The notes under the pieces are model-generated. The model was not told the origin of the DNA, searched no databases, and saw nothing but the letters and a program-made list of their open reading frames with translations. From IMG/VR virus record IMGVR_UViG_3300021426_000093, positions 2,572 through 66,571 of that record: DNA of 64,000 nt; one strand, 5' to 3'. A program made the position numbers and the translations under genes. The DNA is from a virus (Duplodnaviria > Caudoviricetes). Shown here piece by piece: positions 1 through 62,648 of the stretch. Every line of letters starts with the position of its first letter. The stretch's first letter is position 1.

Positions 1-2192
1 ACACTCATAGCACATAAAACAATATTGTTTGTTTTAATTTTTTGTCCTTTTCCACCACGGCCTTGAGATTGAAAAACTTTATTAGCGATTATTTTTCCAC
101 AACCGCCTTCTTCAAAAATAAAAATTGGATCTTCTTCATTACAAAGAATTGCACTAGCTACATAATCAGAGTCATTTAAAGTAATACCTTTAACACCACC
201 AGCTATCTTACCTTGTGCATTAATATCATCTGCTGCAAATCTAATACTATAACCATTCTCAGTGACAAGAATAATATTATCTGTATCATATCCAAGAGAA
301 ACAGATCGTAGCTCATCATCATCTTTAATACTCACAGCTTTGATGCCACGAAGATTTTGAGTATTACTAATATACTCTTTTACTTTAGTCTTTTTAATAA
401 TACCATTTTTAGTTGTGAATAGAATAAAATCGTGCGGCGTAGTATTAGGAACAATATTTAAAACGTATTCATTTGGTTCAAGTTGAACAATAGAACCTAC
501 AGCAGTTCCCTTATCGCTTGTGCCGCAAGTCTTAATGGTATTTAGTTTAATGCGGAACATACGCCCAGCATTAGTAAACAACATAACAATGTCAGCGGTT
601 GTAGTTTTAAATAGATTTATGACTGGTTCTTTATTGCGGCGATATGATTTAACTGGAATAGATTTAATATATCCATCTTTATTCATATAAACAACTACAT
701 CTTCAGGTATAGCTGCAATTTTTTCTTTTGCTGTTTTAGTAGTTTTTGCTGCAGCTCGTTCCGCGATAATTGTCCTACGTTCATCACCAAATTTTTTACT
801 TACCTCTTGGAATCGTTTAATCATTTGTTCTTTAAGTAATTCTTCTGATTTAAGAATTGCTTTAATAACAGAAATACGTTCCAGCAATTTAATTTTTTCT
901 TCAACAAATTTATCAACTTCAAGCTTGGCTAATCGAGATAGTTTCATATCAAGAATAGCTTTAGCCTGCTCTTCATCTATAATAAGTAACTTTTGTAAAT
1001 TAATATTAGCTTCTTTGGTGCTAGGAGATTGTTTAATAATTTTAATAACTTCATCAATCTGTGCAATTGCTTTAATAATTCCTTCAACAATTTTTAAACG
1101 ATGCTCTAATTTATTAAGTTCTTGTTGATATAGATTAATATAAACTATTTTTTCATGGTCAAGATGAGCTTGTAAAGCTTGCCGCCACCCATAAATTTTC
1201 GGGAAACGACCATTTTCAAGCATCGTCATATTAATGCTATATGATTTTTGAAGTGATGTATTAGCATATAATATTTGTTTAATTTTTTCTTGGTCTACAG
1301 TTTTATCAAGATAAATTTTAATACAAACATCTTCACCAGTTAAATCATTAATACCCGTAATTCCAATATCAGGATTTTCAGACACTAATTTAGCTACCTC
1401 GCCGCAAATAGTATTAGTATATACACCATATGGTAAATCAGTGACAATTAGAGTTCTTTCTTTATCATCATAATTAATTGTTGCTTGTAATATACAAGCT
1501 TTACCTTTACCTTGTTTAAGACTTGTAGCAACTTCTGCTTTATTAATTAAAGTTGCGCCAGTTGCAAAATCAGGATAACAAAGAATGTCGTCATCAGATA
1601 TATTTTCATCTTGAAGAAGTTTAATTAAAGCATTATTTACTTCACCAAGATTAAATTGTGGAATACTTGATGCAAGACCAACTGCAATGCCAGTTGATCC
1701 ATTCACAATATTATAATATCCAAGAGAAGAAAGAACTCGTGGATATTGTTCTGTATCATCATAATTATCTATCCATTCATCAATAGTATATTTATTAGTA
1801 TCTTGCAATAAATAATTTGATATTGGAGACAGCCTTGATGATGTGTAACGACTTGCGGCCCAGTTACCTGTTTCAGTAAGCGTACCATACGAACCTTCGA
1901 CTTCAATTAGAGGATAACGCATGGCAAATGGCTGGCCTGAACGCATAATAATACCTTCACAAGATGCATCACCGTGAATATAAAAACGCATTGCAGAACC
2001 AATTGCTTTAAGAGTTTTCTTGAAAGGCTTATCAGACGTGAATTTATCTGTAAAAAGACTATAATATACTTGTCTTGCAGATGGCTTAATACAATCTCGC
2101 ACATCTACGAGCGCACGAGACTGAATAACTGCGCCTGCGTACTGAGTAAAAGATTCTTTAATTACATCTTCTAATTCTAATACTTCATTCAT
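1..2192 (-). CDS. gyrA: DNA gyrase / type II topoisomerase subunit A (3' end runs off the window)
   Basis: Read manually from ATG 2192 (SD GGAGA): MNEVLELEDVIKESFTQYAGAVIQSRALVDVRDCIKPSARQ...YIHGDASC...MRYPLIEVEGSYG...AASRYT (catalytic Tyr context). C-terminal beta-pinwheel-like repeats (QGKIAGGVKGI, QGRGGKG). About 730 codons, no in-frame stop seen, Trp as TGG. Confidence 0.93.
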   Translation of the reverse strand, partial: MNEVLELEDVIKESFTQYAGAVIQSRALVDVRDCIKPSARQVYYSLFTDKFTSDKPFKKTLKAIGSAMRFYIHGDASCEGIIMRSGQPFAMRYPLIEVEGSYGTLTETGNWAASRYTSSRLSPISNYLLQDTNKYTIDEWIDNYDDTEQYPRVLSSLGYYNIVNGSTGIAVGLASSIPQFNLGEVNNALIKLLQDENISDDDILCYPDFATGATLINKAEVATSLKQGKGKACILQATINYDDKERTLIVTDLPYGVYTNTICGEVAKLVSENPDIGITGINDLTGEDVCIKIYLDKTVDQEKIKQILYANTSLQKSYSINMTMLENGRFPKIYGWRQALQAHLDHEKIVYINLYQQELNKLEHRLKIVEGIIKAIAQIDEVIKIIKQSPSTKEANINLQKLLIIDEEQAKAILDMKLSRLAKLEVDKFVEEKIKLLERISVIKAILKSEELLKEQMIKRFQEVSKKFGDERRTIIAERAAAKTTKTAKEKIAAIPEDVVVYMNKDGYIKSIPVKSYRRNKEPVINLFKTTTADIVMLFTNAGRMFRIKLNTIKTCGTSDKGTAVGSIVQLEPNEYVLNIVPNTTPHDFILFTTKNGIIKKTKVKEYISNTQNLRGIKAVSIKDDDELRSVSLGYDTDNIILVTENGYSIRFAADDINAQGKIAGGVKGITLNDSDYVASAILCNEEDPIFIFEEGGCGKIIANKVFQSQGRGGKGQKIKTNNIVLCAMS

Positions 2193-2200
2193 TTTTTCTC

Positions 2201-4060
2201 CTACTCACGCACAGTTGAAAAATCAATTTCATTAAATACAAACTCTTTGCGGGCAATACCCGAGCTTCCCATTAATGCTTTAAGTAAATTAATTGCATCT
2301 TCTGTTGGGTTAAGAATATCCATTTTTTGATTTTTACCGAACATAGAAGCTTTAGCTTGATCCGCGGAAAGGCTCCCTAGACCTTTATTGCGCTGTACTT
2401 CACCGGTTATTTTACCACGAACAGCATCCATTTCTTCATCTGTAAAAAAGTATTGTTCACCTTGTTTAGTTTTAACAATGTATAATGGTGAACGTAACCA
2501 ACATAGACGTTGTTCTTCAATAAATTCTGGGCAAAAATGCTGTAGAGCAGTTGCAATTAAAAGACCAATATGATAACCATCACTATCAGAGTCTGTACAA
2601 ATTGCGACGCGTCCATACCGCAAATCAGATGGATCATATGCACCAGGTGTAATATTTAATGCTTTAAGAAGCAATTGAATTTCTTCATTCTTCTCTAATT
2701 TCTCTTTACTGTTGGAAAAAGCATTGATTAATTTACCACGTAACATTAGAATACCATATTTTTGTCTATCACGAGCAACAGCCATTGATGCGCCTGCGGA
2801 TAATCCTTCTACAAGAAGAAGTGTACTATCTTCACCAAGATATTCTGCATCTTTTAGTTTATCTGGATGAAGAATCTTAACTTTATTAGATGATTTTTTA
2901 GTTTTATTGGCTTTAACTGCAGCATGCGCTTTTTTAGCAGCTTCTGCAGCTTTACGTGCAATTAATGCTTTTTCAATAATATTTTTTCCATCACTAACAT
3001 TGTTATCGAGCCAAATTTCCAACTGTTCACTAAGAATTGAAGATATAAAAGCAGTATCAATCTTAGTAATATTGCTTTTAACCTGTGCGTCATAGGCAAC
3101 ATTTTCAGCGGTAATATTACAAACGAGAACAAGTCCTTCTTGCAATGCTGCGCCTTCAAGATTCTTATCCTTTTCTTTCAATATACCTTGTTCTTTTGCC
3201 CATTTATTTAAAGTACGAGTAATACATGATTTAATGCTTGTAATATGCGGTCCGGCAGTAGTTAAACCGCAATTAACATAAGGAACAATCGTTGAAGATG
3301 ATTTATCGCAATAAGTTAAAGCTAAGTCTAATTTTTGTTTATCTCTTTGCTCTTGGATTATAAAAATATTATTTAATATTGAGATACTTTTTCCAAGAGA
3401 ACGAGATAATAAATCTTGGATTCCATTATGATTAATTTCATCACCATTAAAAATAATGGTTAGTCCTGGACAAAGACAAGTAATATCTTCACAGAAATTG
3501 CGGAGTTTTGTCTCATTTACTCTTGGATTAGTAAAAAACTCTTCGCTAGGGGTAAAGACTACTGTAGTTCCACTATCATGAGCATCTACTTTGCCAGTAT
3601 TACGACCAACAAGTATTCCTTCTTCAAAAACAATTTCTTCGTATTCTCCTTTATTATTAAAAGAAGTTACTTGAAGTTTATGACTAAGAAAATTTGTTAG
3701 TTTTGCACCTATACCATTAAGTCCGATAGCCGTACCTTCGTACACACCATCATCTCTATATTTTCCTGATGTATTAATAACATCAAAAGATGCTTGGAGA
3801 ACTGTTTCTCCATCTTCTCGCATTATATTAATAGGAAAACCTTGTCCTGCATCTGTAATAGCTACAGCGCCATCATCCATTAATGTTACAATAATTAGAT
3901 TACCATGACCAATATTATATTCATCAATGGCATTACCAAGAATTTCTATTGCTAATTGCGTCGCATCACTTGTATCTCCGCAATACATACCAGGACGTAA
4001 ACGCACATGCTCTAAAGGAGATAATGATTCAATACTATCTTCTTTATATAAATTATTCAA
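2201..4060 (-). CDS. gyrB: DNA gyrase / type II topoisomerase subunit B
   Basis: GHKL ATPase motifs (EILGNAIDE, DAGQGFP, GLNGIGAK) and TOPRIM motifs (LVEGLSAG, LRGKLIN, DSDSDG); adjacent to subunit A. Confidence 0.95.
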   Translation of the reverse strand: MNNLYKEDSIESLSPLEHVRLRPGMYCGDTSDATQLAIEILGNAIDEYNIGHGNLIIVTLMDDGAVAITDAGQGFPINIMREDGETVLQASFDVINTSGKYRDDGVYEGTAIGLNGIGAKLTNFLSHKLQVTSFNNKGEYEEIVFEEGILVGRNTGKVDAHDSGTTVVFTPSEEFFTNPRVNETKLRNFCEDITCLCPGLTIIFNGDEINHNGIQDLLSRSLGKSISILNNIFIIQEQRDKQKLDLALTYCDKSSSTIVPYVNCGLTTAGPHITSIKSCITRTLNKWAKEQGILKEKDKNLEGAALQEGLVLVCNITAENVAYDAQVKSNITKIDTAFISSILSEQLEIWLDNNVSDGKNIIEKALIARKAAEAAKKAHAAVKANKTKKSSNKVKILHPDKLKDAEYLGEDSTLLLVEGLSAGASMAVARDRQKYGILMLRGKLINAFSNSKEKLEKNEEIQLLLKALNITPGAYDPSDLRYGRVAICTDSDSDGYHIGLLIATALQHFCPEFIEEQRLCWLRSPLYIVKTKQGEQYFFTDEEMDAVRGKITGEVQRNKGLGSLSADQAKASMFGKNQKMDILNPTEDAINLLKALMGSSGIARKEFVFNEIDFSTVRE

Positions 4061-4062
4061 CC

Positions 4063-4266
4063 TTACCTCCCATCATCTTCATATCTAAATTCATAGTTAT
4101 TAAGTATATCAGCATATTGTTTAACCAATGCGGCTATATCAAGTATATTCATTTTAATTGCGCACCAAGCTTCTTCTTCAGTATTATCATCTTGAGCGCT
4201 ATAAATCATAGATTGTATATCGTCTAAAGTATAATATTTATATTTACCAATTTGTCCACTAGGCAT
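4063..4266 (-). CDS. hypothetical protein (67 aa)
   Basis: ORF with SD GAAAGGA, directly downstream of a consensus promoter. Confidence 0.7.
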   Translation of the reverse strand: MPSGQIGKYKYYTLDDIQSMIYSAQDDNTEEEAWCAIKMNILDIAALVKQYADILNNYEFRYEDDGR

Positions 4267-4288
4267 AATTATCCTTTCTATTTATATA

Positions 4289-4337
4289 ATTATACCATAT
4301 AAAAATAGCAGATGTCAAGAAAATCTCAACATCTGCT
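4289..4337 (-). promoter_or_regulatory. sigma70/sigmaA-type promoter with its -35 inside an inverted repeat
   Basis: Minus strand TTGACA-18 nt-TATAAT with extended TG. AGCAGATGT...ACATCTGCT inverted repeat overlaps the -35. Confidence 0.75.
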
Positions 4338-4344
4338 TAAACAC

Positions 4345-4830
4345 TTAATCCTGCAGTTCGGCCGCACGTTTCTCTTCAAGTTTCTTATTTAGTTGTTTAC
4401 GACGTTCGATCATGCGGGATGTGTAATCTTGGAATGAGTCTTTCATATATTTATATTGAGCATAAGCTTTCTCATACTCTTTTTGAGCTAATTCATATTG
4501 ATAATAAATATCACCTAATACAATGCCAAGTTCATATTGTTTGGTTGCTTTATATTTACTATGAAGCGTTTTATGAACATTGAGAATACCACGGGCACGT
4601 TCTTTTAATACTTTAGCTTTAGTATGAGCAATTTCAATATCGCATTTACGTTCAGCAAAACGATAACCATCCCAATCATTAATATTAGAATAATCTTGTG
4701 GACATGGTTTAACAGAACAAGTAAAAACTCCATATTTACTTGACTTTGTTACATAATAGACAGGAATTCTAATTCCATTTATAATAATTTTATCTTTTCA
4801 AGAGTCTAGGATTTTACTATGTTTACTCAT
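4345..4830 (-). CDS. hypothetical protein (161 aa) with in-frame TGA at codon 11
   Basis: ATG at 4830 overlaps the end of the upstream gene: MSKHSKILDS(TGA)KDKIIINGIRIPVYYV...ELQD-TAA. Missing from the ORF track; there is no alternative start after the TGA. Confidence 0.75.
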
Positions 4831-5020
4831 AATATTTCACTTTCTCCGCTTCATGACCATATTCTTTAATTATGAAAGGTATCTTGCGGTTATATTGAGG
4901 GTATATTTTTTTAGCTATATCACAAGCTAAAGTTATTGCTTCTTTTGGATTATTTGCATTAAAATCACCATAGGTAATTGTTTTTCCATTTTCAGATTGA
5001 GATACATGATATTTAGTCAT
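4823..5020 (-). CDS. hypothetical protein (65 aa)
   Basis: ORF with SD GGAAGGA, downstream of a divergent promoter. Confidence 0.65.
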   Translation of the reverse strand: MTKYHVSQSENGKTITYGDFNANNPKEAITLACDIAKKIYPQYNRKIPFIIKEYGHEAEKVKYYE

Positions 5021-5052
5021 ATAATTCCTTCCATATCAACTATTCTTTAAAA

Positions 5053-5145
5053 TAAGTATAACATTTAATTTAACAATTGTCAAATAATTTTTTTTACTTG
5101 TTTTTAAATTTTATTTGACAATTATATATAATTAATGTTATATTA
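5053..5145. promoter_or_regulatory. divergent sigmaA-type promoter pair
   Basis: Inverted repeat AATTGTCAAATAA...TTATTTGACAATT gives TTGACA on both strands, each followed by a TATACT/TATATT-like -10. Transcription direction switches here. Confidence 0.7.
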
Positions 5146-5170
5146 TAATAAATAAAAGAAAGGGATTATT

Positions 5171-5428
5171 ATGTCTGCATGGTTAATATATGGAAAAGTT
5201 ATTAAAGAGATGCCTTTTCCAGATGGAAATGGTGGAAAGAAAATTGTAGAACCGCAAACAACTTTTCGTGCTCTTAATTATCGAGGACAAAGAGTATCTA
5301 GATTAGCTGATGCGGGAGAGTATTATGAAAAAGAAATGGCTCAAAAAATTATAGATAAAGCTCAAACATATTGGGATAAACTAGGTTATGGTGATTGTAT
5401 TGCTTATGAAATTAGAAAGAGTAAATAA
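5171..5428 (+). CDS. hypothetical protein
   Basis: ORF with SD, downstream of a promoter. Confidence 0.7.
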   Translation: MSAWLIYGKVIKEMPFPDGNGGKKIVEPQTTFRALNYRGQRVSRLADAGEYYEKEMAQKIIDKAQTYWDKLGYGDCIAYEIRKSK

Positions 5429-5691
5429 TGTCGTATAGATTAGAATACATAGGGCCAACACAAACTTTTAAAGCTGCAGCACTAGACCCCAGAGATTTAA
5501 ATTTAATTGATATTTCTGTTGAGAACGGTAAACAATATATTGTTGAAATGCAACAAGATGGTCCAGTAACAATTTTTAATGGAGATGTAATGATTGATCC
5601 TAATACAACAATGTGGATTATTTTTCCTTCACTTGGTGGTCGAATTCCTTATTCACCAGAAGCTATATTAAAACAATGGAGAATAGTCTAA
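5428..5691 (+). CDS. hypothetical protein
   Basis: TAATG translational coupling to the previous gene. Confidence 0.7.
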   Translation: MSYRLEYIGPTQTFKAAALDPRDLNLIDISVENGKQYIVEMQQDGPVTIFNGDVMIDPNTTMWIIFPSLGGRIPYSPEAILKQWRIV

Positions 5692-5993
5692 TAAAAGACA
5701 ATAATTATTTTTATATTACTTTAAATTGTTGGAATTGTGATCACCCGACATGTCGTTTAGGGCATATCGTTCATGAAAATGATAAAGACGGTTGTGTGCG
5801 GCAAGTTGATGAAGATTTATTTATTGAACATTATCATCAATTGAAAGAAGTTTGGCCTTTTGTTTTAAAATCAAAAAATAAAGAAAAAATTGATGAAGAA
5901 TATGAAAAAACAATGCAGATATTAGATAAAGTATATAGTAGTCCATGTATTAAACAATATGGTAAAGGATTTAAAGCTATAGTTGGAGTATAA
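5676..5993 (+). CDS. hypothetical protein with CxxC-like motif
   Basis: Likely start MENSLIK; contains CWNCDHPTC. Confidence 0.55.
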   Translation: MENSLIKDNNYFYITLNCWNCDHPTCRLGHIVHENDKDGCVRQVDEDLFIEHYHQLKEVWPFVLKSKNKEKIDEEYEKTMQILDKVYSSPCIKQYGKGFKAIVGV

Positions 5994-5994
5994 A

Positions 5995-6807
5995 ATGATT
6001 GTCTGTACAGGTGATGTTCATGGAAAAGTTATTGAACGTTTTTCTTTTAAGCGTAATCCTAAGTTGCGACAATTGCAATCAGGGGATATTGTTTTTCAAT
6101 TAGGTGATTTTGGTCAACCCTTTGGACCTACTACCTATAAAGAAGCTGAATACGTTTTTAATTTTCTCAATGAAAAACCTTGGACAACTATTGTTATTGG
6201 TGGAAATCATGATGACTATGATTATTGGCAGTCATGTCCTCAAGTAGAATTATTTGGTGGAAAAGCTCGTCAAGCTACTTTTCATGGAAAGAATTTTTCT
6301 GTATTCTTTGTTGATGAAATAACAATTTTAAATATTAATAATTATAATATTCTTTGTATCCCATGTGCAGAATCTCATGATGTAAATATTTTATTAAATC
6401 CTAATGAAATTGGGTTTAAGCGTAAACAGGCTATTTTACGAAAACAGCATCAGTGGTTTAGAGTTGTTGGTCGTTCATGGTGGCCGCAAGAAAAAATGGA
6501 TGTTCAAAAGAATGCAGAGTTTATGGAACATCATATGAACGGACATTTTGATTTTATTCTAACGCATGATGCTCCCGCATTAATAAACTCATGGTTTAAA
6601 AGACCAGAAAACCCTGCAAGAATAGTTTCTACTGCAGGACAGCTATTTTTAGAAGAGTTGCGGAAAAATCTTGATTTTGATGTGTGGTTTCATGGTCATT
6701 TTCATTTTACAGGCTCTTGGAATAAAATATACGATGAAAGACTTTGCGGAGTATATTTTGAAATTATTCAACTTATTGATGAGAATTCCTTGACAATTGT
6801 ACGATAA
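5995..6807 (+). CDS. calcineurin-like metallophosphoesterase
   Basis: Motifs GDVHG, LGDFG, GNHD, THDAP, HGHFH. Confidence 0.88.
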   Translation: MIVCTGDVHGKVIERFSFKRNPKLRQLQSGDIVFQLGDFGQPFGPTTYKEAEYVFNFLNEKPWTTIVIGGNHDDYDYWQSCPQVELFGGKARQATFHGKNFSVFFVDEITILNINNYNILCIPCAESHDVNILLNPNEIGFKRKQAILRKQHQWFRVVGRSWWPQEKMDVQKNAEFMEHHMNGHFDFILTHDAPALINSWFKRPENPARIVSTAGQLFLEELRKNLDFDVWFHGHFHFTGSWNKIYDERLCGVYFEIIQLIDENSLTIVR

Positions 6808-6845
6808 ATATAGTATAATATAATTAAAGAGGAAGGAGAGTTGAT

Positions 6846-7043
6846 ATGTTGGATGGCGTCTTTAGTTATTGCTCTTGGCTTGAGAATGATATAGCAAGTA
6901 ATATTATTGATTTTGTTGATAGGCATAAATATACTTATATTCCGCGATGGAAAGTTGATAATTTCCTTGATGAATATAATATTAATTATAATGAACTTCC
7001 ACAATATTTAAAAGATAAACTTGATGAAATTGATGTGTACTGA
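6846..7043 (+). CDS. hypothetical protein (65 aa), ends in TGA
   Basis: SD GGAAGGAG. The TGA overlaps the SD (GAGGAG) of the next gene, which suggests a genuine TGA stop. Confidence 0.65.
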   Translation: MLDGVFSYCSWLENDIASNIIDFVDRHKYTYIPRWKVDNFLDEYNINYNELPQYLKDKLDEIDVY

Positions 7044-7054
7044 GGAGCCATTGC

Positions 7055-8515
7055 ATGCAACCTTTTGATTGTTTGACAGAGAACGATAAAGAAATTGTGC
7101 GGCAATGGTGCATTAATTATGCGAATGTAGAACCGCAAAGTATAGAAAAAGTTTTAGCGACTTGGAATAAAAATAAACGAACTTTATTTAGAGCTTTTGG
7201 AAAGAAGCTTCAAATTAGTTTTCCTGTTCATCAAAAAGTAAATTCAAGTTATCGTCATAATAAATGGAGAAATTTATATTCTCCATTTATTATTTATGAT
7301 AAAAATGATTTACAACATTTTAAATATGACCCACGCAATCATATTTTTATAAATAATTTAGTTCAGTGGTTACGAGATACTTGGATAGATGATTTACCAA
7401 TTTCAATATTACAAGCAATTCTTGAATATACAAAATATTGTTATATTGAAAATGGCAAGACGTCTAATGATAAACTTTTTGCTGGTGGTCTTAATGGAAA
7501 AATTTTAAAAATTCCTGCGGGAACTAAAATTATGCGTGCTATTCGTAAAGTCCTTGAGTATTATTCTTTTCCTTATATGGACTCATTTAATAAATGGCGT
7601 GATGATATTAGTGTAATTAATACTGATAAAGAAATTGATGCAGAATTAGTATTAAGTATTAATCCTGTAGATTTTATTACAATGAGTGACAATAAGAGCG
7701 GTTGGACTTCTTGTATGTCATGGATTGATGATGGTGGTTATTCAACTGGTACTATTGAAATGTTAAATAGTAATGTTGCTGTAGTAGCTTATTTACGGAA
7801 TCCGCAGTCTTTTAATTACAATGATCTTGATATTCCAAATAAATCATGGCGTACTTTAGTGTTTATTCATAAAGATATACTTTTAGTTGGAAAACATTAT
7901 CCTTATCAGAGTGAGGTTTTAGCAAAGATAGTTCTTGATAAAATCCAAGAGATTGTAAAAACAAATCTTGGATGGAAGTATTCTTATCAAAATCAACTTT
8001 ATCGTGATATGGAAAGAAGTTATAATAATAATTTTATTCGAGATCCTAGCTGTTTTCATCGAATGAATGATGGTCATAAAATATATGTTTATACTAATGT
8101 AATGTATCACGATATTATTGAAGATCATGGTACTGAATATTGGTGTTGTCGAAATAGGGTAGAAAAAAATTTATATTTAAATTTATCTGGACCAGCTACG
8201 TGTATGTGTTGTGGGATGCCTATAGATTTAAATAAAACAAATAATATTTCAACATCTAAAAAGTATTGTAGTAATTGTGAAGAAAAATATCAATGTGCGG
8301 GATGTAAATTTGTAAGTGTCTCACATATTAAAACAAAAATTCCTTTTATAGAAAAAACATATTGGGGTAAAGTTCAACATTATGGTAATCCTGATTGTAT
8401 TATTTCTAATTATCTTTGGGATGCTGAAAATACATGCTGTATATCTAGAGATAAGGTATATGAAATAGATAAAAATAGGTATAAGCCATTAACAAGAGAA
8501 AGGTTATGTTGTTAA
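7055..8515 (+). CDS. hypothetical phage protein (486 aa) with Cys-rich C-terminus
   Basis: Long ORF, all Trp as TGG, several CxxC pairs near the C-terminus. Confidence 0.8.
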   Translation: MQPFDCLTENDKEIVRQWCINYANVEPQSIEKVLATWNKNKRTLFRAFGKKLQISFPVHQKVNSSYRHNKWRNLYSPFIIYDKNDLQHFKYDPRNHIFINNLVQWLRDTWIDDLPISILQAILEYTKYCYIENGKTSNDKLFAGGLNGKILKIPAGTKIMRAIRKVLEYYSFPYMDSFNKWRDDISVINTDKEIDAELVLSINPVDFITMSDNKSGWTSCMSWIDDGGYSTGTIEMLNSNVAVVAYLRNPQSFNYNDLDIPNKSWRTLVFIHKDILLVGKHYPYQSEVLAKIVLDKIQEIVKTNLGWKYSYQNQLYRDMERSYNNNFIRDPSCFHRMNDGHKIYVYTNVMYHDIIEDHGTEYWCCRNRVEKNLYLNLSGPATCMCCGMPIDLNKTNNISTSKKYCSNCEEKYQCAGCKFVSVSHIKTKIPFIEKTYWGKVQHYGNPDCIISNYLWDAENTCCISRDKVYEIDKNRYKPLTRERLCC

Positions 8516-9902: not shown

Positions 9903-9923
9903 TTTGTTTTTTAAGGAATAAAT

Positions 9924-53240: not shown

Positions 53241-53322
53241 GTGCGATTGTCCTAAGGTTTTACTGGACAGTCGCACTATTTTTATGATATAATATATCTA
53301 CAAAGGAGAGAAAGGATATATT

Positions 53323-53583: not shown

Positions 53584-54014
53584 TGAGACAGCGTAATATA
53601 TACCTTGAAAAAATTAATCCTGATATTCACAGTTATGGTATTAATTGGAAACATATGGGTTTTCATCCTATACGGTGGGTGCAGGATTTTATACAACGCC
53701 GCGAATGCGGATATGATTATAGAGTAACTTATAATCTTGACTCTTGGATGATTGAACAACTTTATAGTTGGCTTAATATGTATCTTGAAGCTAGTTATAA
53801 TACTATTGATCTTGAGTATCATAAATTTAATATTGATGGTATGGAATTAACAGAATTAGAAGTTATTGTTTATATTATAGATAGTTTTGAACAGTGGCTT
53901 GTTTGTATCGATGATATTGATAAATATGCAACTGATGAAGAAATTGCGGCTCAAGAGCAAGTGAAGAAAGCGTTTGCGGCTTTAGGGCAAATAATTTTTT
54001 GTCTTTGGTGGTAA
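53583..54014 (+). CDS. hypothetical phage protein
   Basis: TAATG coupling; Trp-rich, all TGG. Confidence 0.75.
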   Translation: MRQRNIYLEKINPDIHSYGINWKHMGFHPIRWVQDFIQRRECGYDYRVTYNLDSWMIEQLYSWLNMYLEASYNTIDLEYHKFNIDGMELTELEVIVYIIDSFEQWLVCIDDIDKYATDEEIAAQEQVKKAFAALGQIIFCLWW

Positions 54015-54064
54015 AAATTTATCAAAGAATAATAAATTTTTTAAGAAGAAAGGAGTATTTAATT

Positions 54065-54812: not shown

Positions 54813-54944
54813 TATTACTTATTCGTAATAAAATTTATAATATTACATATATGTAAAATAATATTCTATGCGGCTGTGGTAAGATTTTTCTTGCCGGCCG
54901 CATTTTATTTATGTTATAATATATTTATAAGAGAAAGGAGAAGT

Positions 54945-55283
54945 ATGGAAAAGAATAATTATGTAATTTGTGGTTATTGTGGAGTTGATGTTGTTCCAGA
55001 TTATGAATATGAAATTATTTATGATGTTACTCATAATGAAGCTGTAGATAAAGCTAAAAAGCTCTCTTTACGGCAAAGTATCGACAGATATGCAGATTTA
55101 ATTGTTCAAGAGACTGAGAAAGAATTGCCACTTGATCCTGCAGATGTTTATGAAGCAGTCATTGATGATTTTATTCGATTTGAAGTATGGAAGATTGATT
55201 CTGATATTTCAAAAGAAGCATGGGATGAATTTGATTTTGGCCCTGATACTTTTTGTAATCGTTATTGTAAACGAGTAGCATAA
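54945..55283 (+). CDS. hypothetical protein
   Basis: Promoter and SD AAGGAG precede MEKNNY. Confidence 0.7.
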   Translation: MEKNNYVICGYCGVDVVPDYEYEIIYDVTHNEAVDKAKKLSLRQSIDRYADLIVQETEKELPLDPADVYEAVIDDFIRFEVWKIDSDISKEAWDEFDFGPDTFCNRYCKRVA

Positions 55284-55293
55284 GGAGAATGTA

Positions 55294-55470
55294 ATGGATT
55301 ATGAAGATTACGTATGTGGTGATGATCACATTTATGATTTTGAATCTGATTTGTTCTCAAATATGGCCACCGCAGAACCCTGGGACGTAGAAGAAGACGA
55401 ATGGGATCCTTATGGTGATTGGGTTTATGAGGGCGAGTTCACTGATACTTATGATGATTACTACAATTAG
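55294..55470 (+). CDS. small acidic protein (58 aa)
   Basis: SD AAGGAG; Asp/Glu/Tyr-rich; below the track cut-off. Confidence 0.55.
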   Translation: MDYEDYVCGDDHIYDFESDLFSNMATAEPWDVEEDEWDPYGDWVYEGEFTDTYDDYYN

Positions 55471-55485
55471 TTTTAAGGAGCAATA

Positions 55486-56412
55486 ATGGTTAACTGTTTT
55501 AAGCCTTATCTCCACGTTGAGAGATTGGGAAAAACAGAAGTTGATAATATCCTTTGCGGCACTGTAAGACTTACAGCAAAACTTGATGGTACTAATGCAT
55601 CTGTATGGGCAGACGAAAATGGTCATATGCACTATGGTAGTCGTAAGCGTGAAATTTCTGTTGAAGATGATAATGCTGGCTTTGCTGCTTGGATGAAGTC
55701 TGACAATGAGGAAGCTGTTCTCCTTATTCGTTTTTGCCAAGCTAATCCTAGTATGATTGTTTATGGTGAATGGGGCGTGTCTAAAGTAGGTGCAATTAAG
55801 AAATACATCAAAGAAGCTGCGAATAAACTTTGGATTTTTGATATTTATTCCCGTGAAGAAGAACGTTATCTTACTTGGAATGAGCTTGAAGCCGCACTTA
55901 TTATGTATAATTTAATTGATTATCGTGTTAAGCTTTTGGCTACTCTTACTAATCCAACACTTGACGATATTATTAAGGTTGCGGATGAAAATACTTTTCT
56001 TCTTGAAGGAACTAACACGCTTGGAGAAGGCGTTGTAATTCGTAGAGATAACTATACTAATTGCTATGGACGTTATGCTGTGGCAAAATATGTACGAGAA
56101 GATTTTAGACCAAATACTCCAAAAGTAAAGAGAATTGCTCAAGCTGGTGAGGTTGAACAAGATTTTATTAATCGTTATCTAACTCAGTCTGAACTTGAAA
56201 AGGCTAAGGCTAAAACTGCCTTAGCTTGCGGCGAAGAGTATGTTCCTGGTAATGGCAAGTTTATTGGTATGTTTCTTAATTTACTTTGGAAGGATGCTCT
56301 TGAAGAGAATATTGTAGATTTTTGTAAGCGTGCCAAGAATCCTCAAATTGATTTTGCTGCACTTAATGGTCTAATTAAAGCAGAAGGCCGCAAATTCCTA
56401 GGATTGGTATAA
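55486..56412 (+). CDS. RNA ligase (Rnl2-like nucleotidyltransferase)
   Basis: Motif I KLDGTN, YGEW, FDI, EGVVIR, K.V.E.F. Confidence 0.85.
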   Translation: MVNCFKPYLHVERLGKTEVDNILCGTVRLTAKLDGTNASVWADENGHMHYGSRKREISVEDDNAGFAAWMKSDNEEAVLLIRFCQANPSMIVYGEWGVSKVGAIKKYIKEAANKLWIFDIYSREEERYLTWNELEAALIMYNLIDYRVKLLATLTNPTLDDIIKVADENTFLLEGTNTLGEGVVIRRDNYTNCYGRYAVAKYVREDFRPNTPKVKRIAQAGEVEQDFINRYLTQSELEKAKAKTALACGEEYVPGNGKFIGMFLNLLWKDALEENIVDFCKRAKNPQIDFAALNGLIKAEGRKFLGLV

Positions 56413-56413
56413 T

Positions 56414-56692
56414 ATGAAGAAAATTTTACTTTCTCTTTTGGGAATTATATTGTGTTTTAGTATATGTGGTTGTACTAGTTCAAAGTTAGAAGCACACACA
56501 TCCAACGGAGAATCTTTGGAGCATGAAAGATTTCGTATAGTAGAAGGAGATTATAGTTCTCAAGCAATTTTAGTTAATACTGAAACTGGCGTTGAGTATT
56601 TATGGATTAGTGAGTATTCTAGAGCAGGATTAACTGTCATTGTTGATCATGATGGTAAACCATTAATCGCTCCCAATTTTAAGGATTACTAA
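56414..56692 (+). CDS. small lipoprotein (DUF6440-like by recollection)
   Basis: Signal peptide with lipobox-like ICGC; ILVNTETGVEYLW...GLTVIVDHDGKP. Confidence 0.65.
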   Translation: MKKILLSLLGIILCFSICGCTSSKLEAHTSNGESLEHERFRIVEGDYSSQAILVNTETGVEYLWISEYSRAGLTVIVDHDGKPLIAPNFKDY

Positions 56693-56880
56693 TGGGAATA
56701 TATAAAGTAGTATATGATGATGATCTTTGTTATCATTATGTATCATGGTTTTTTGATTTAGAAACAGCCAAGAATTGGTGTGAACTAAATAAGCATAAGT
56801 GGATGCGATGGCATATATATGATAAGAAAGGACATGAAAAACATGGTGGATGTAATGGACCGTCCTACTTTGGAGCATAA
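56692..56880 (+). CDS. hypothetical protein
   Basis: Translationally coupled ORF. Confidence 0.55.
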   Translation: MGIYKVVYDDDLCYHYVSWFFDLETAKNWCELNKHKWMRWHIYDKKGHEKHGGCNGPSYFGA

Positions 56881-57151
56881 AAATATTCCTGTGTATGCAG
56901 AAAATCTTTATAAATGGACACCAGAACCTACTGTATTAAAACAAGATATTTGTTGGGATATTCCAATTTTAGAAGAATTAGATTGTCCTTACTGTAAAGG
57001 TGAAACTGGTGATTGTATCATAGATGATTCATCTATCATCGCTTATGTATCAGGGAATCATTTGTGGGTTGAATTATTTGAACCGCATAATCTAGATATT
57101 GCTTTTTCAAATATAAATTATTGCCCTATGTGTGGCAAACAGTTAAAATAA
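56819..57151 (+). CDS. zinc-ribbon protein (start uncertain)
   Basis: CPYC and CPMC pairs. Confidence 0.6.
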   Translation: MIRKDMKNMVDVMDRPTLEHKNIPVYAENLYKWTPEPTVLKQDICWDIPILEELDCPYCKGETGDCIIDDSSIIAYVSGNHLWVELFEPHNLDIAFSNINYCPMCGKQLK

Positions 57152-57233
57152 TTATTGCTCTTATAATAAGGTAGCTCTTGTCAGCTACCTTATTTTTATG
57201 TTATAATATTTTTATAAGGAAAGGGGAGATAGT

Positions 57234-57404
57234 ATGTCCAAGAAGAAAAATCATAGGTCTATTACTATTGACCCTAAAATTATTTGGAATGCACACAAGC
57301 CGCGCTATAATGCTTATCAAATTGGGTATGGCGCTCATAGCAAAAATAAGTATAGTCGTAAAAAAAAATATAAAACTGATTGGAGAAATTATGACCGAGA
57401 TTAA
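57234..57404 (+). CDS. small basic protein (56 aa)
   Basis: Promoter and SD GGGGAG; MSKKKNHRS...GYGAHSKNKYSRKKKYKTDW. Confidence 0.7.
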   Translation: MSKKKNHRSITIDPKIIWNAHKPRYNAYQIGYGAHSKNKYSRKKKYKTDWRNYDRD

Positions 57405-57747
57405 TCTTCTTGAAGAGACTGAGCGCGCTTTGGCTTGTCATAATAAGACTTGGGATGACATTTCTTGGATTGGCGGACGCGATTTTTATATCAGTATTGA
57501 GCAATTTAAGGAAGCCGCAAAAGACACTAATTATGACTGTGGTTATGGTAGTGAAGAAGTTGCAGTAGATTTAGTTGTTTGTTTTAATGATGGATCATGG
57601 TTATCTCGTGCTGAGTATGATGGTTCAGAATGGTGGAGATATAATTCTTATCCACAGAAACCACAGTATTATCGTCTAGGGAAAATTAAATTAGCTGACC
57701 CTGGTGGTTATGATGCTTGGAGTGGTTTAAAGAAACTTAATAAATAA
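57391..57747 (+). CDS. conserved phage hypothetical protein
   Basis: MTEINLLEET...YDCGYGSEEV...WLSRAEYDGSEWW. Confidence 0.75.
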   Translation: MTEINLLEETERALACHNKTWDDISWIGGRDFYISIEQFKEAAKDTNYDCGYGSEEVAVDLVVCFNDGSWLSRAEYDGSEWWRYNSYPQKPQYYRLGKIKLADPGGYDAWSGLKKLNK

Positions 57748-57756
57748 GGAGTAATT

Positions 57757-59040
57757 ATGTCTTGGAATCCTGTACTTAATATGTTTATTGAAGTGAAAAA
57801 TGAATTTATTAAGGAGTGCGGTAAGGATGCTTTGTGGCAGTATGGCCGCAAGGATTCTTTTACGAATTGTCTTTCCTATTGGGTATGGACTCTTGGAAAT
57901 CATGGTCATCCTAAGCGCCATATTTATAGTAAAATGATTGAACCTTTACTTCTTAATGAAAGTATGGGTATGTTGCTTATTAAGTATAATGATCTTGGTA
58001 TTGATTGGGATGCTTATGATGGTTTTTATCGTGAATGTAGATCCGTTGTGATCGATGTACTTAATGATTGTTTGGTTCTTGCTCCTTTCCGTAAATTTTT
58101 TAATATTAATGAACTTGAGGAGACTCAGCTTCATGTTATTCAAGAGAAGATAGATAATGGTAATTCTGTAGAAATTACCGATAAGATTGATGGAAGTATG
58201 TGCGATGCTCGTTGGTATCGCAAGGATCTTGTTATGTCTGGTTCTCAGGCTCTTGATATTAATAAATCTTATCGTCTAGAAAATTATTATCATTGGATGC
58301 ATCAGCATGAAAATGCAGTACAGATGCTCAAAGATTATGATAATTTTACTTTCATTTTTGAAGGAGTATTCCCTGATGATGTTCATATAGTACAATATAA
58401 TGAACAAATGTTCGGTCTACATCTCCTTGGAATGCGGCGAGTAGAAGATGGTGCGGAACTGCCTTATAAGGATGTTGTAGAAATTGCAGAAAAATATGGT
58501 GTGCCGCATGTTAAAATTTTTGATATGACTTTTGAAGAAGCTTATCAGGACGCTCTTAATGATGGCCGCAAGGCTAATGAGGGTGAGGGATATGTTATTG
58601 ATATAGGTGGTCAGAAGTATAAGCTAAAGTATAATGATTATGTTATGCTTCATCATGCTCTTTGTAAGATGGTTTCTCCCAATGCTATAATTGCGGCTAT
58701 TCGTGAAGGCCATTGGGATGATTTCTATTCAAAGATTCCTGTCGCATACCAGCCGCAAGCTAAGGCTATCGCAGATGATGTATTTACTTATCTTCATCTT
58801 TTGGACGAACGAGTGTGCTATTGGTGGGATAAAGTTAGTGAATATTGTGATTATAATCCTAATCCTGACCGTAAATTTTTTATGATTGGCGTGAATGAAA
58901 TTGTACCTAAGCGCTATCAGGGAGCAGTTCGTTCTAAATATCTAATGGAGAATATAGATTATCTTCGTGGTGTTAAGTATGGAGATATTCAAGACTATAT
59001 TGAGTTGATGCAGGCTTTAACTTTAAATGTTAAAGCTTGA
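57757..59040 (+). CDS. RNA ligase (T4 Rnl1-like); ends in TGA
   Basis: RECRSVV, PFRKFFNINE, KIDGS, FIFE, EGYV, KLK. Confidence 0.88.
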   Translation: MSWNPVLNMFIEVKNEFIKECGKDALWQYGRKDSFTNCLSYWVWTLGNHGHPKRHIYSKMIEPLLLNESMGMLLIKYNDLGIDWDAYDGFYRECRSVVIDVLNDCLVLAPFRKFFNINELEETQLHVIQEKIDNGNSVEITDKIDGSMCDARWYRKDLVMSGSQALDINKSYRLENYYHWMHQHENAVQMLKDYDNFTFIFEGVFPDDVHIVQYNEQMFGLHLLGMRRVEDGAELPYKDVVEIAEKYGVPHVKIFDMTFEEAYQDALNDGRKANEGEGYVIDIGGQKYKLKYNDYVMLHHALCKMVSPNAIIAAIREGHWDDFYSKIPVAYQPQAKAIADDVFTYLHLLDERVCYWWDKVSEYCDYNPNPDRKFFMIGVNEIVPKRYQGAVRSKYLMENIDYLRGVKYGDIQDYIELMQALTLNVKA

Positions 59041-59109
59041 GAATGAAATTCTTTATTGACACCTGCTTGTTAAATATGTTATAATATTTTTATAAGAAAG
59101 GAGAGATAT

Positions 59110-59604
59110 ATGACTCAGTGTGATGAAACTATTCGTCGTCAGTTGCGTAAACCTACTGTATATATAATGTGCGGCGTGCCTGGTTCAGGAAAAACATATT
59201 TTTGTAAGAACGTGCTGATGGATCACCCTTGGCGTAGTCGGGTCTATATCTCTTCTGACGATATTCGTGAAGAGCTTTGTGGTGATGCCAGTAATCAATC
59301 TCTTAATGGTGTCGTTTTTGATATTTTTTATGCCCGTGCTCGTGAAGCTATTGAAAATGGAAATGATGTAATTCTTGACGCAACGCATTTGACTAAGAAG
59401 TCTCGCCGCAAATGTCGTAATCATTTTAAGGATTTGGATTGTAAGTTTATTGCAGTTCAGATGAATACGCCAGTATTAGATGCTATTTATCGTAATAAGA
59501 AACGTGATAGAGTTGTACCTGCTGATGCAATGAGCCGCATGATTAAGGTATATCAGCCTGTTGAGGATAGTGAAGGTTTTGATTATGTCTGGAGAGTAGA
59601 TTAA
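59110..59604 (+). CDS. polynucleotide kinase-like P-loop kinase (AAA_33)
   Basis: CGVPGSGKT, SSDDIREE, VILDATH, RNKKRDRVVP. Confidence 0.85.
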   Translation: MTQCDETIRRQLRKPTVYIMCGVPGSGKTYFCKNVLMDHPWRSRVYISSDDIREELCGDASNQSLNGVVFDIFYARAREAIENGNDVILDATHLTKKSRRKCRNHFKDLDCKFIAVQMNTPVLDAIYRNKKRDRVVPADAMSRMIKVYQPVEDSEGFDYVWRVD

Positions 59605-60182
59605 TGATTTATTTAAGTTCAGATTTACATTTTGGACATGATAGAGGCTTCATTTATGAGCCGCGAGGGTTTTCTAGTGTCCAAGAGAATGATGAAATAA
59701 TTATTGAGAGATTTAATAGTATCGTGCGGTCTAATGATGATCTTTATCTCTTGGGCGATCAAATGCTTAGTGATAATGAACATGGTTTAGATTGTTTGCG
59801 GCAACTTAATGGTAATCTTCATATTTTATGGGGAAACCATGATACAAATGTGCGCAAAAAACTTTATAAAACTCTTCCTAATGTTGTAGAGATTCTTGGA
59901 TATGCAGGAATGCTTAAATATGGTAAATGGCATTTCCTTTTGTCGCATTATTCAACTTTAACCGCGAATTATGATGATTATGATAAACCTTTAAAAGAAC
60001 GGATATGGAATCTTCATGGCCATACACACTCCAATAATCGTTTTGAATTTATGGATAAAGGATGGCAATCTTATAATGTAGCTGTTGATGCTCATTATTG
60101 CTATCCTGTCAAAATTGATAATGTTATAGAAGATATTAAATGGTATTATATTCAACGTAAATATGAAGAGTATGAGTTTTAA
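59604..60182 (+). CDS. metallophosphoesterase
   Basis: SDLHFGH, LGD, GNHD, SHY, HGHTH; coupled to the kinase gene. Confidence 0.88.
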   Translation: MIYLSSDLHFGHDRGFIYEPRGFSSVQENDEIIIERFNSIVRSNDDLYLLGDQMLSDNEHGLDCLRQLNGNLHILWGNHDTNVRKKLYKTLPNVVEILGYAGMLKYGKWHFLLSHYSTLTANYDDYDKPLKERIWNLHGHTHSNNRFEFMDKGWQSYNVAVDAHYCYPVKIDNVIEDIKWYYIQRKYEEYEF

Positions 60183-60190
60183 AATTTTTA

Positions 60191-60353
60191 TTGACGACAG
60201 TTTAAAAAATATGATATAATATATTTATCAAAAGGGGATAAAAAAGGTTTTTTGATTTTTATATAAAATGTAAGTTTTATTTATCCCCTTTAAAAAAAAT
60301 CTTGTAGCTGTTAAAAATTTTTATTGACAGCTGAAAAGAAAATATGATATAAT
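60191..60353 (+). promoter_or_regulatory. tandem promoters driving the ncRNA/tRNA region
   Basis: TTGACG...TATGATATAAT and TTGACA...TATGATATAAT. Confidence 0.7.
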
Positions 60354-60435
60354 AAATATATAAGGTTGAGAGAGTTAATAAGGTGTTTCTAAAAAAAGAA
60401 ATACAATATTAGGTTTCTTAACCTAAGAACCTTGA

Positions 60436-61025
60436 AAACAGAATAGTTGAAGATTTAGGTGCAACTCAGTGCAGAGCGGTGTCAACGTGCTGAGAATTCT
60501 TCTCAATGAGTTGATGCGGCAAGGGATACTTTGCGGCTAGGCTTTAAAATGAATCGTGAGATTTATTTTAGAAGGTAGAAACTACCAACGAAATGAAGAA
60601 TGTGCTAAGTCTGTTTGCTTAGAAAACGTACTTGTAGATTGTCGTCTCCGTAATAGACGCCCCAGTGGGGAAGAATCCAGAACACTTATTAACAGGTGGT
60701 GCTGAATAAGAGAAAGCTGGAAATACCAATAAGGAGATTGAGCTGTTGACTCTCTGGTGACAGGGGGAATAAGACAAGGGCGAGGTTCGAGTAGCGCAAA
60801 GCAGCTCCTTTTATCATTATAATGAAATTAGGAGAATATAATATGCTGAATGATGCGTGAAAGTTGCGGGTAAGCAATCCTGCTACGGAAATGGCCTTTA
60901 CGGCTGGGGCAAGAAGCATTAGGGTCGCTCCCTTTTGTTCAGCCTTGTCTCCCGTGTGACAGAAGATTCAGCAAATAGAGGTGGTACGGCGAAGGTCGGC
61001 ATGTATATCTTCAACTATTCTGTTT
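60436..61025 (+). ncRNA. ROOL-like giant ornate RNA (~590 nt)
   Basis: Perfect 19-bp terminal helix AAACAGAATAGTTGAAGAT/ATCTTCAACTATTCTGTTT. The size matches ROOL (~580 nt). Segments GAGTAGCGCAAAG, GTGAAAGTTGCGGGTAAGCAATCC and GGGTCGCTCCCT resemble ROOL as I recall it. Next to phage tRNAs. Confidence 0.65.
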
Positions 61026-61029
61026 GAAG

Positions 61030-61870
61030 GAATTGACGTAATAGTCCGTTCGCGTCATTAAATAAAACGGCATCTCTGGTTAGGTAGGGTTTATAAAAGA
61101 GGGTAGCCTAACATGCTCTCTAATATATTTAGTGTATACACAGTAAGGCTTTTTATTGCTGATTGGTCCGTTACGTACTGCTATAAAGTAAAACCGTAGA
61201 AAAGAATTCAGTAACCCGGAAGATTGGTCTTGCCTGTGCTGGGTCAAAGCTAAAAAGACTAGTTACGTAGCCGGTATGCGGACACCGCTCGGTAGAGGAA
61301 GTCCGCAAGTATTAAAAGGGCTGAAATAACTAATAAATAGTTTATGCCTTAGAGAACATTTATAAAAATGTTTTCTAAGGCGTATCTGATGCCAGTGTAG
61401 TGAGAATCGACTGCACTATAAAATAAAATTCAAGGATTTAAATTCCTGATGTGCCAAGATCAGCTGCAGGGAGTCTAGTGTAAACCGATTAGACTATAAA
61501 ATAAAAATCGTGGTTTTTTGGTTTTGAAATCACCTAAACCAAAAAGATTTCCGTTTTATGTGTTTGAACGAAATCAAGTACATTCCATGCAGGATAGGGT
61601 AATGATCTTGCCGCAAGTCTATGCGTAAAATAAAGATCGCTTGTAGATTAAGAGCGTTAGAATCTTCTGTAGTTTATACTTTCTCTACGATGAGGGTAAT
61701 TCCTATGAAAGTATCTTCTCTTGGAGGATATATCCACTTACCTAAAGTCATATCAGCCATAACGGGTATATCTTCCAAAAGGAGTAATCCTACTGTCTTT
61801 GCGAGCATGTCGATTAGACGTAAAATAATTTCACATGCGGTGGTCGTGTTACACCTTACCCAACACTTTT
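61030..61870 (+). ncRNA. large structured RNA (~840 nt), possibly GOLLD-like
   Basis: No credible ORF, GC-elevated, many hairpins (e.g. 61346-61381); ends at the first tRNA. Size and position fit GOLLD, but sequence resemblance is weak. Confidence 0.45.
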
Positions 61871-61875
61871 ATTTT

Positions 61876-61951
61876 GCTGGTGTGGCGCAATAGGTAGCGC
61901 ACTTCACTTGTAATGAAGATGTTGCGGGTTCGATTCCTGTCACCAGCTCCA
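61876..61951 (+). tRNA. tRNA-Thr(TGT)
   Basis: Cloverleaf, anticodon arm CTTCA-CTTGTAA-TGAAG, encoded CCA. Confidence 0.92.
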
Positions 61952-61953
61952 GT

Positions 61954-62028
61954 CGGGCGTTAGTGAAGCGGTTATCACAATGGTCTGTCTAACCATTATC
62001 ACGGGTTCGATTCCCGTACGCCTGGCCA
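61954..62028 (+). tRNA. tRNA-Asp(GTC)
   Basis: ATGGT-CTGTCTA-ACCAT, G73, CCA. Confidence 0.9.
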
Positions 62029-62033
62029 CAAAA

Positions 62034-62123
62034 TGCGGGGTAGTTATATGGATTAAAACATTAACTGAAACTGGTGCATAAAGACAGTTAAAGAATCGGG
62101 TTTGAGTCCCGACCCTGTAACCA
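62034..62123 (+). tRNA. atypical tRNA with expanded anticodon loop (possibly Phe-GAA plus insertion)
   Basis: Acceptor TGCGGGG/CCCTGTA+ACCA, D arm and T arm TCGGG-TTTGAGT-CCCGA intact. The anticodon arm has a 7-bp stem and a 17-nt loop. Confidence 0.6.
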
Positions 62124-62126
62124 TAT

Positions 62127-62203
62127 GCGATCATGGTGTTTAACGGCTAGCATGTCAGCCTTCCAAGCTGCGGGTGAGGGTTCGAATCCCTCTGGTCGCT
62201 CCA
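62127..62203 (+). tRNA. tRNA-Gly(TCC)
   Basis: CAGC-CTTCCAA-GCTG, GGTTCGAATCC, CCA. Confidence 0.9.
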
Positions 62204-62209
62204 TAATAT

Positions 62210-62287
62210 CGGATAGTGGGCCAGTTTGGTTAAGCCACATGATTTGGGATCATGTTATCGGGAGTTCAAATCTCTCCTATCCGACCA
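62210..62287 (+). tRNA. tRNA-Pro(TGG)
   Basis: CATGA-TTTGGGA-TCATG, CCA. Confidence 0.9.
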
Positions 62288-62385
62288 TGTTTATAATAGT
62301 ATATGCTATTTAATTAAAATTTAAAATAGCCTTTAATAGCCTAAGAGAAGGCGCTTGAATTTTTTCAAGAGAATGAAGGCTGTTT

Positions 62386-62460
62386 GCGGGAGAAGCTCAA
62401 CGGTAGAGCACTCGACTCATAATCGATTGGAAGCAGGTTCGATTCCTGTCTCCCGCACCA
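62386..62460 (+). tRNA. tRNA with CAT anticodon (Met or Ile2)
   Basis: TCGA-CTCATAA-TCGA, CCA. Confidence 0.88.
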
Positions 62461-62484
62461 GTAAAATTGAAGAAACATTAATTT

Positions 62485-62560
62485 GGCGCATTAGATTAAC
62501 GGATAGATCACTACGCTTTCACCGTAGAGATGAGGAGTTCAACTCTCCCATGCGCTACCA
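62485..62560 (+). tRNA. tRNA-Glu(TTC)
   Basis: CTACG-CTTTCAC-CGTAG, CCA. Confidence 0.9.
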
Positions 62561-62563
62561 AAT

Positions 62564-62648
62564 GCGGGTGTGGCGAAATTGGCAAACGCGACGGACTCAA
62601 AATCCGTTGCCGCAAGGCTTGTGGGTTCGAGTCCCACCACCCGTACCA
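62564..62648 (+). tRNA. tRNA-Leu(CAA)
   Basis: ACGGA-CTCAAAA-TCCGT, long variable arm, CCA. Confidence 0.92.

Follow-up and report, generated by a model that had tools for sequence, protein, structure and literature searches.

The window analysed here comprises 64,000 bases, positions 2572-66571 of a partial virus contig of 66,571 bases with 33% GC (IMG/VR record IMGVR_UViG_3300021426_000093). Two short DNA words were followed in it: TGCGGC, which reads GCCGCA on the opposite strand (W1), and TCCAAGAG, which reads CTCTTGGA (W2). Few genome-wide signals show how DNA is handled; short dense words, among them Chi, uptake sequences and primase sites, belong to these. The contig encodes both subunits of a T4-type topoisomerase II, an SbcD-like phosphoesterase, a tape-measure protein, tail-fibre and BspA-type LRR proteins, and two RNA ligases together with a kinase and phosphoesterases; a ROOL RNA and eight tRNAs are also present. 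When TGA is read as tryptophan, the coding fraction rises from 0.78 to 0.94 and the virion module at 10-50 kb fuses into long frames; in-frame TGA is absent from the early genes. Since the late module is open only with this reading, gene calls with TGA as tryptophan were used for the codon controls. In-frame TGA was also seen within the methylase matches of two relatives (G002 and G005). The features are listed in Table 1.

Table 1. Features of the window and the distribution of W1 and W2 in them. Positions are those of the window; G1 and G2 are relatives of the phage.
Feature	Position	Strand	Remarks
Early/replication block, W1-rich	1..9400		standard code; topoisomerase II subunits, SbcD-like phosphoesterase; in 2-kb windows observed W1 far above local expectation
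Late virion module	10000..39142	+	TGA must be read as Trp; W1 about 7-fold enriched despite 25-34% GC
Variable tail-fibre/LRR block	39143..48503	+	tail-fibre PHROG, BspA-type LRR, DUF285; no nucleotide match in G1 and G2
GC-rich (46%) patch within the variable block	43994..47938	+	one W1 copy (45334)
Densest W1 stretch, 34 copies	49400..62650		RNA-repair genes (two RNA ligases, kinase, phosphoesterases), non-coding RNAs, tRNAs
RNA-repair set	55486..60182		adjoins the ROOL RNA and tRNA cluster
RNA ligases	55486..56412, 57757..59040		part of the RNA-repair set
AAA_33 kinase	59110..59604		part of the RNA-repair set
Phosphoesterase	59604..60182		part of the RNA-repair set
ROOL RNA	60441..61017	+	Rfam RF03087, 346 bits; W1 at 60515 and 60532
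W1 field	433..62614	both	73 scattered copies, 38 + and 35 -
W2 field	291..61725		24 scattered copies

The number of exact W1 copies in the window was compared with that in 100 dinucleotide-preserving shuffles, which gave a mean of 8.34 (standard deviation 2.70, maximum 15) against the 73 observed. An earlier note on this DNA had counted about 65 copies by eye; the excess it described is real, its number was too low, and the positions it quoted as examples are right or one base off (433, 5797, 7098, 51359, 54661, 58503 and 60515). On the whole contig 78 copies were found, compared with 9.2 expected from an order-1 Markov model and 5.7 from base composition, and W1 is the most exceptional hexamer of the contig (z = 22.7). 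In the densest region, 2-kb windows held 8-9 copies where 0.2-0.35 were expected. With a maximal-order Markov model the exceptional core is the pentamer TGCGG, the top 5-mer (169 copies against 111.8). T precedes GCGG in 61-69% of cases, C follows TGCGG in 46%, and the logo carries no information beyond; the sixth base of W1 is a preference, not a requirement. A longer hidden motif or a repeat family was rejected, as there is no information outside the six bases, and an excess of TGCCGC, considered as the mark of a palindrome-like 7-mer, was explained by W1 followed by A.

An excess of this kind could be an artefact of composition or coding, with amino-acid or codon pairs, islands of high GC or a repeat family as its source. 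The proteins do account for some of the raw excess, as protein-keeping shuffles gave 19-24 copies compared with 9 from the order-1 Markov model. Synonymous shuffles yielded 19.3 +/- 4.0 copies, and a well-mixed pooled chain that kept the protein, the codon usage and all dinucleotides yielded 18-30 (about 24), against 74 observed in both cases; codon-order shuffles gave 10.9 copies against 65 observed (table-11 gene set). The earlier note had stated that its proposal would fall if the excess disappeared after control for amino-acid and dicodon usage, and under these controls the excess stays. W1 exceeds expectation in each of the six strand-by-phase classes, by 2- to 33-fold once peptides and codon usage are allowed for; that note had remarked that W1 occurs in different codon phases. 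Copies were likewise found in RNA genes, as it had said, namely in the ROOL RNA and in tRNA-Leu (62609), and also in non-coding stretches. The flanks of the copies are not conserved, and neither the GC-richest DNA nor bacterial DNA of the same GC shows an excess. The artefact explanation is effectively refuted, and W1 is a genome-wide signal maintained at the DNA level, not a by-product of amino-acid or dicodon usage. To this extent the selected genome-wide signal proposed earlier is upheld; the analogues named with it (Chi, uptake sequence, modification) found no support. Convergent W1 pairs are about 1.5 times commoner than divergent ones (268 and 183 within 120 bases). Hairpin stems were rejected as the whole cause of the excess, since this surplus covers a minority of the copies only.

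The enrichment is strongest in the shared DNA. In DNA that aligns to G1 and G2, 62 copies were found against 4.9 expected (12.6-fold), compared with 16 against 5.0 (3.2-fold) in non-shared DNA and 4 against 3.4 (1.2-fold) in the 9.4 kb of the variable fibre block; the contrast between native backbone and imported segments drawn in the earlier note is thus borne out. Outside the GC-rich patch the contig is enriched 11.2-fold. Were the patch enriched like the rest, about 25 copies would be expected in it (P = 4e-10 for at most 1). The earlier report of no copies in the GC-rich patches holds at 39.3-40.3 kb (none, 1.0 expected locally) and not at 44.0-47.7 kb, where one copy lies at 45334, compared with 2.2 expected locally. 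The open reading frame at 38,718-40,487 carries 3 copies against 1.2 expected. No relative of the GC-rich fibre reading frame was found among GTDB contigs, and the LRR protein had matches at 42% identity or less only.

The same word was counted in related phages. All 27 contigs or loci of related phages in the comparison are enriched for W1, the lowest topoisomerase identity among them being 43%. Among these data are 19 IMG/VR loci with the shared topoisomerase (51-90% identity), every one of them W1-enriched, 12 with W1 as the top hexamer. Five whole relatives of 125-144 kb carry 110-243 copies each, compared with 7-21 of the reversed control, on the two strands alike (118/125, 94/82, 57/53, 59/74 and 67/91). 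The core TGCGG is constant in the clade and the sixth base drifts, being G or A in locus L011 and A in L018 and L007. Clade contigs were also found in eight GTDB bins labelled Bacillales, Bacilli, Clostridium, Bacillota or Prevotella, and all eight contigs are enriched, one of them at 46% GC. These contigs, of 9-130 kb (L035-L042), lie in species-representative bins (G006-G010 and G336-G338); two bins from rabbit gut count the phage contig among their largest, which is either a hint of the host or binning contamination. Three more distant phages, with about 30% topoisomerase II identity, showed no W1 excess. The W1 excess thus runs through a family of phages from gut and rumen whose genomes measure ~140 kb. 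A literature search on the W1 word, on over-representation of primase sites and on recoded rumen phages found nothing on this signal.

Bacterial DNA was examined for the same words. About 390 kb of bacterial contigs from three of the phage-holding bins (25-31% GC), which are candidate hosts only, contained 13 copies of W1 against 15.7 expected; W1 thus stands at 0.8 times expectation there and the pentamer TGCGG at 0.6-1.3 times. The density of W1 is 1.2-1.7 per kb in the phages and about 0.03 per kb in these bin-mate contigs. None of 301 Bacilli-class genomes had a phage-like W1 density, and where a bin combines a high W1 ratio with a low density, contigs of such phages are probably present in it. 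A spacer-like match was sought in the family of one bin and none was convincing. Avoidance of palindromes differs among the phages: CTTAAG (once, at window position 23943, against 20.7 expected) and TTCGAA (4 in the contig against 40) are avoided in G0 and G1, and palindromes of the TTAA type (TTTAAA, TTAATTAA, ATTAAT) in G2, which suggests that these phages met different restriction systems. Relatives that differ in this respect nevertheless have their enriched words in common. Within the reach of these candidate-host data the W1 excess is no host property, and we consider it likely that W1 is a phage-intrinsic, selected DNA word.

Mimicry of a host Chi was weighed against these data. Chi words include the E. 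coli octamer, AGCGG of Bacillus and GAAGCGG of Staphylococcus. If TGCGG attenuated a host AddAB or RecBCD enzyme, copies stacked both ways would protect linear, probably permuted, phage DNA. The core is one base off the Bacillus AddAB Chi, the phage-holding bins are mostly labelled Bacilli or Bacillota, and fast turnover with weak selection per copy (see below) would fit. Like Chi, W1 is a G-rich word of 5-8 bases, independent of frame and kept by density rather than position. Phages that lack RecBCD inhibitors can over-represent Chi beyond their hosts, with observed/expected ratios of 3-5 compared with about 2.3 in the host (PMC3784561), and in being sometimes over-represented in phages Chi resembles W1 here. 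However, Chi belongs to the host, whose chromosome carries it in excess and with a strand skew, and in lambdoid phages it clusters between the origin and cos, whereas W1 has no excess in candidate-host DNA, no polarity, an even spread and a far larger excess, and the phage has no UvrD/RecB-type helicase or PD-(D/E)XK nuclease. None of the 301 Bacilli-class genomes is enriched, no polarity towards the contig ends is seen, the word is kept in the relative of 46% GC as well as in relatives with other restriction avoidance, and W2 is left unexplained. The lack of strand polarity and of an excess in candidate host DNA thus argues against Chi proper, and mimicry of Chi, weakened by these results, is unlikely. 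Uptake sequences (the uptake signal sequence of Pasteurellaceae and the DNA uptake sequence of Neisseria) share with W1 an approximately ten-fold excess, both orientations, all frames and some convergent hairpin pairs. They have 9-12 informative bases and belong to the chromosomes of competent bacteria, whereas W1 has only 5-6 informative bases and its excess is confined to phage DNA, which argues against an uptake sequence.

The persistence of individual copies was followed by comparison of aligned genomes. Between G0 and G1, 24 of 62 aligned copies were kept in place, and neither W1 copy of the ROOL RNA is present at the aligned position of G1. When five comparisons were pooled, 50.5% of 206 W1 copies were intact compared with 39.5% of 2015 GC-matched hexamers (Fisher P = 0.003). 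Copies are thus lost and gained while the density stays high, from which it follows that density is maintained during turnover with weak retention per copy; selection on each W1 copy looks weak. Spacing is Poisson-like (coefficient of variation about 1), with a mean gap per strand of 1.1-1.8 kb and maximum gaps of 7-12 kb, which gives no indication that even spacing is selected. In G0, G1 and G2 every 10-kb bin holds the word as often in forward as in reverse orientation. A polar architecture word, of the type of FtsK orienting polar sequences or SpoIIIE recognition sequences (KOPS/SRS), would show a strong strand skew with a switch at origin and terminus, and was rejected as there is no strand skew.

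The excess could also stem from a process without function, namely sequence-biased mutation, repair or gene conversion that introduces the word into resident DNA. In favour of this, copies disappear at nearly the rate of GC-matched hexamers (per-base divergence 0.15-0.26 inside W1 and 0.16-0.29 in the controls), some alleles differ at 3-5 of the six bases within DNA that is otherwise 85-90% identical, and imported DNA has no W1 excess. Against it, intact copies are somewhat more conserved than the controls (the P of 0.003 given above), and the footprint of very-short-patch repair was not found: transition neighbours are not depleted but stand at 1.2-4.0 times expectation. The share of transitions and of multiple changes made of transitions only was like that of the controls (P = 0.06 and 0.11), and for the same reason runs of transitions were rejected, as was a derivation of W1 from a -10 box by transitions. 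We know of no process that writes two unrelated asymmetric words. A non-adaptive drive is accordingly judged quite improbable.

W1 is probably read on the DNA itself by a protein carried by the phage lineage. One possibility is that a methylase or another modifying enzyme of the phage targets the words, which would be retained for the service of the modified sites in protection or packaging. Short asymmetric words of 5-8 bases on both strands do resemble the methylation motifs of Type IIG, Type III or bacteriophage exclusion (BREX) type systems, as is generally known, and G1 encodes two family-2 glycosyltransferases. Yet no C5 or N6 methylase family is conserved across the five whole relatives: PF00145 and PF02384 were found in none of the five, PF01555 passed the cut-off only in G002 and PF02086 was found only in G005. 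The DpdA-type tRNA-guanine transglycosylase (TGT) family PF01702 was likewise found in none of the five. The lack of a clade-wide gene of either type argues against the common modification routes. Moreover, modification alone gives no reason for enrichment of its target, and this explanation is held to be very unlikely.

A search for clade-wide proteins that could act on such words gave no UvrD/RecB-type helicase, PD-(D/E)XK nuclease or Prim-Pol. A DnaG-type primase was found once per genome in all five whole relatives, at 54-100% identity. It has 357 amino acids, a Cys/His zinc motif near its N-terminus and matches to PHROG 47 (E 1e-32) and to the Aquifex DnaG structure 2au3 (E 9e-5), and its gene adjoins that of a DnaB-like helicase. 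In G1 the replication module encodes, besides these two, a RecJ-like exonuclease, a DNA polymerase III alpha subunit, a ligase and NrdD. On these sequence grounds we tentatively propose that W1 may be the start site of the phage's own primase. The template strand would be the one that carries 5'-(G)CCGCA-3'; the 3' A of this word would be recognised and left uncopied, and the primer would start with pppGCGG(C). At about 33% GC, chance alone would yield the word about once in every 14 kb of each strand. Since it is this rare, selection would raise its density, to about one copy in every 1.1-1.8 kb of each strand (every 0.45-0.8 kb in the case of the pentamer), which is the usual scale of Okazaki fragments. 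Weak selection per copy would keep the density high in all long-resident DNA, with copies gained and lost quickly, and a GC-rich word would give short primers a stable duplex.

The primase is ranked first because no other conserved enzyme found has to read short words everywhere and on either strand, and because the information profile and the mean spacing per strand would both fit. In CCGCA the terminal A is present in 55-78%, the four core bases are fixed and the preceding 5' base prefers C or G and drifts, a profile which any asymmetric reader could give. Primase sites of T7 have a strict 3' end and a relaxed 5' base, and the mild excess of the two strongest of them in the T7 genome (1.4-1.7-fold) speaks for such a reading. 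Sites of T7 gp4 (5'-GTC-3', with preferred pentamers) and of SP6 (5'-GCA-3') are, like W1, short, asymmetric, genome-wide and present on both strands; their strict 3' and loose 5' ends and kilobase spacing would match those of W1, and their reader is a zinc-finger primase, a type of enzyme that the clade also conserves. By analogy, the SbcD-like, RecJ-like and topoisomerase II genes would fit T4-style recombination-dependent forks that run both ways.

Several observations weigh against a priming site. Known DnaG-type primases read trinucleotides, and phage primase sites have 3-5 bases, whereas W1 is a GC-rich word of 5-6 bases enriched 8- to 13-fold in an AT-rich genome. This excess is far larger than that in T7, where the two strongest primase pentamers are over-represented 1.4-1.7-fold at most. 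The lack of any strand polarity and the random spacing with its long gaps count on the same side, as does the 9.4-kb imported block, which replicates without a W1 excess. The primase gene itself lies outside the window, the contig being partial. Finally, priming leaves W2 unexplained.

W2 behaves much as W1 does. The window has 24 copies against 1.52 in the shuffles, in all phases and on both strands, and G1 and G2 have 60 copies each where 3-4 are expected. In two bins a large share of the W2 copies lies on the phage contig (31 of 54 in one, 40 of 94 in the other), with a density of about 0.3-0.4 per kb on phage contigs compared with 0.02-0.04 per kb in the rest of the bins, and it is co-conserved with W1 across the clade. 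These data bring in self-marking, by which W1 and W2 would form a barcode read on double-stranded DNA in either orientation by a putative phage protein. Such a reader might bind, protect, condense or package the DNA, or work together with a nuclease that degrades the DNA of the host, and base modification would not be needed. The large contrast in density between phage and bacteria for both words, the like behaviour of two unrelated words, and the strand symmetry and random spacing, which orientation-free reading of double strands predicts, argue for it, and so does the absence of a conserved methylase or DpdA-type transglycosylase for chemical marking. No candidate reader was found, however; even coverage would be expected where random spacing is seen; and to our knowledge there is no precedent for a phage-encoded reader of self words of 5-8 bases. 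Self-marking is ranked close behind the primase, since W2, the strand symmetry and the random spacing fall into place more readily under it; it is a possibility that we hold with some doubt. Its stricter form, in which a two-word barcode of about 1.2-1.7 W1 and about 0.4 W2 per kb, 10-50 times denser than in the binned bacterial DNA, separates self from host, is more doubtful still. A related known arrangement is that of the stoperators of Cluster A mycobacteriophages, which are dispersed at about 0.5 per kb, lie inside genes too and are read by a phage protein, as would be the case here. Stoperators have 13-14 bases, are oriented with transcription and are bound by the immunity repressor of temperate phages, whereas the present words have 5-8 bases and are free of orientation.

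The known phage case, Chi, is borrowed from the host, whereas W1 and W2 are clade-specific and independent of the bacterial DNA of the bins. They show no excess in imported genes and are kept in spite of a cost in rare codons. Should the primase read W1, this would be the first case known to us in which priming specificity has visibly shaped a whole genome sequence; should the words be a self-mark, a virus would here tell its own DNA apart by a new means, which would amount to the phage's own version of the Chi logic of bacteria. In practice, the words can serve as a signature by which members of the clade are recognised, by which clade contigs inside bacterial bins are spotted, as in the eight GTDB bins, and by which imported cassettes are dated.

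Two local arrangements of the words were also noted. Where a promoter-like site has a TTGAC(A/G) or TAGACA box, the hexamer directly after it switches between GCCGCA and ATTGTA-like alleles in relatives, a matter of 4-5 changes in otherwise conserved DNA (contig position 62768, about 60197 of the window; L004:12436; L003:15362). A plus/minus pair of W2 copies (51331-51338 and 51745-51752) forms the closing helix of a non-coding element of about 420 nucleotides.

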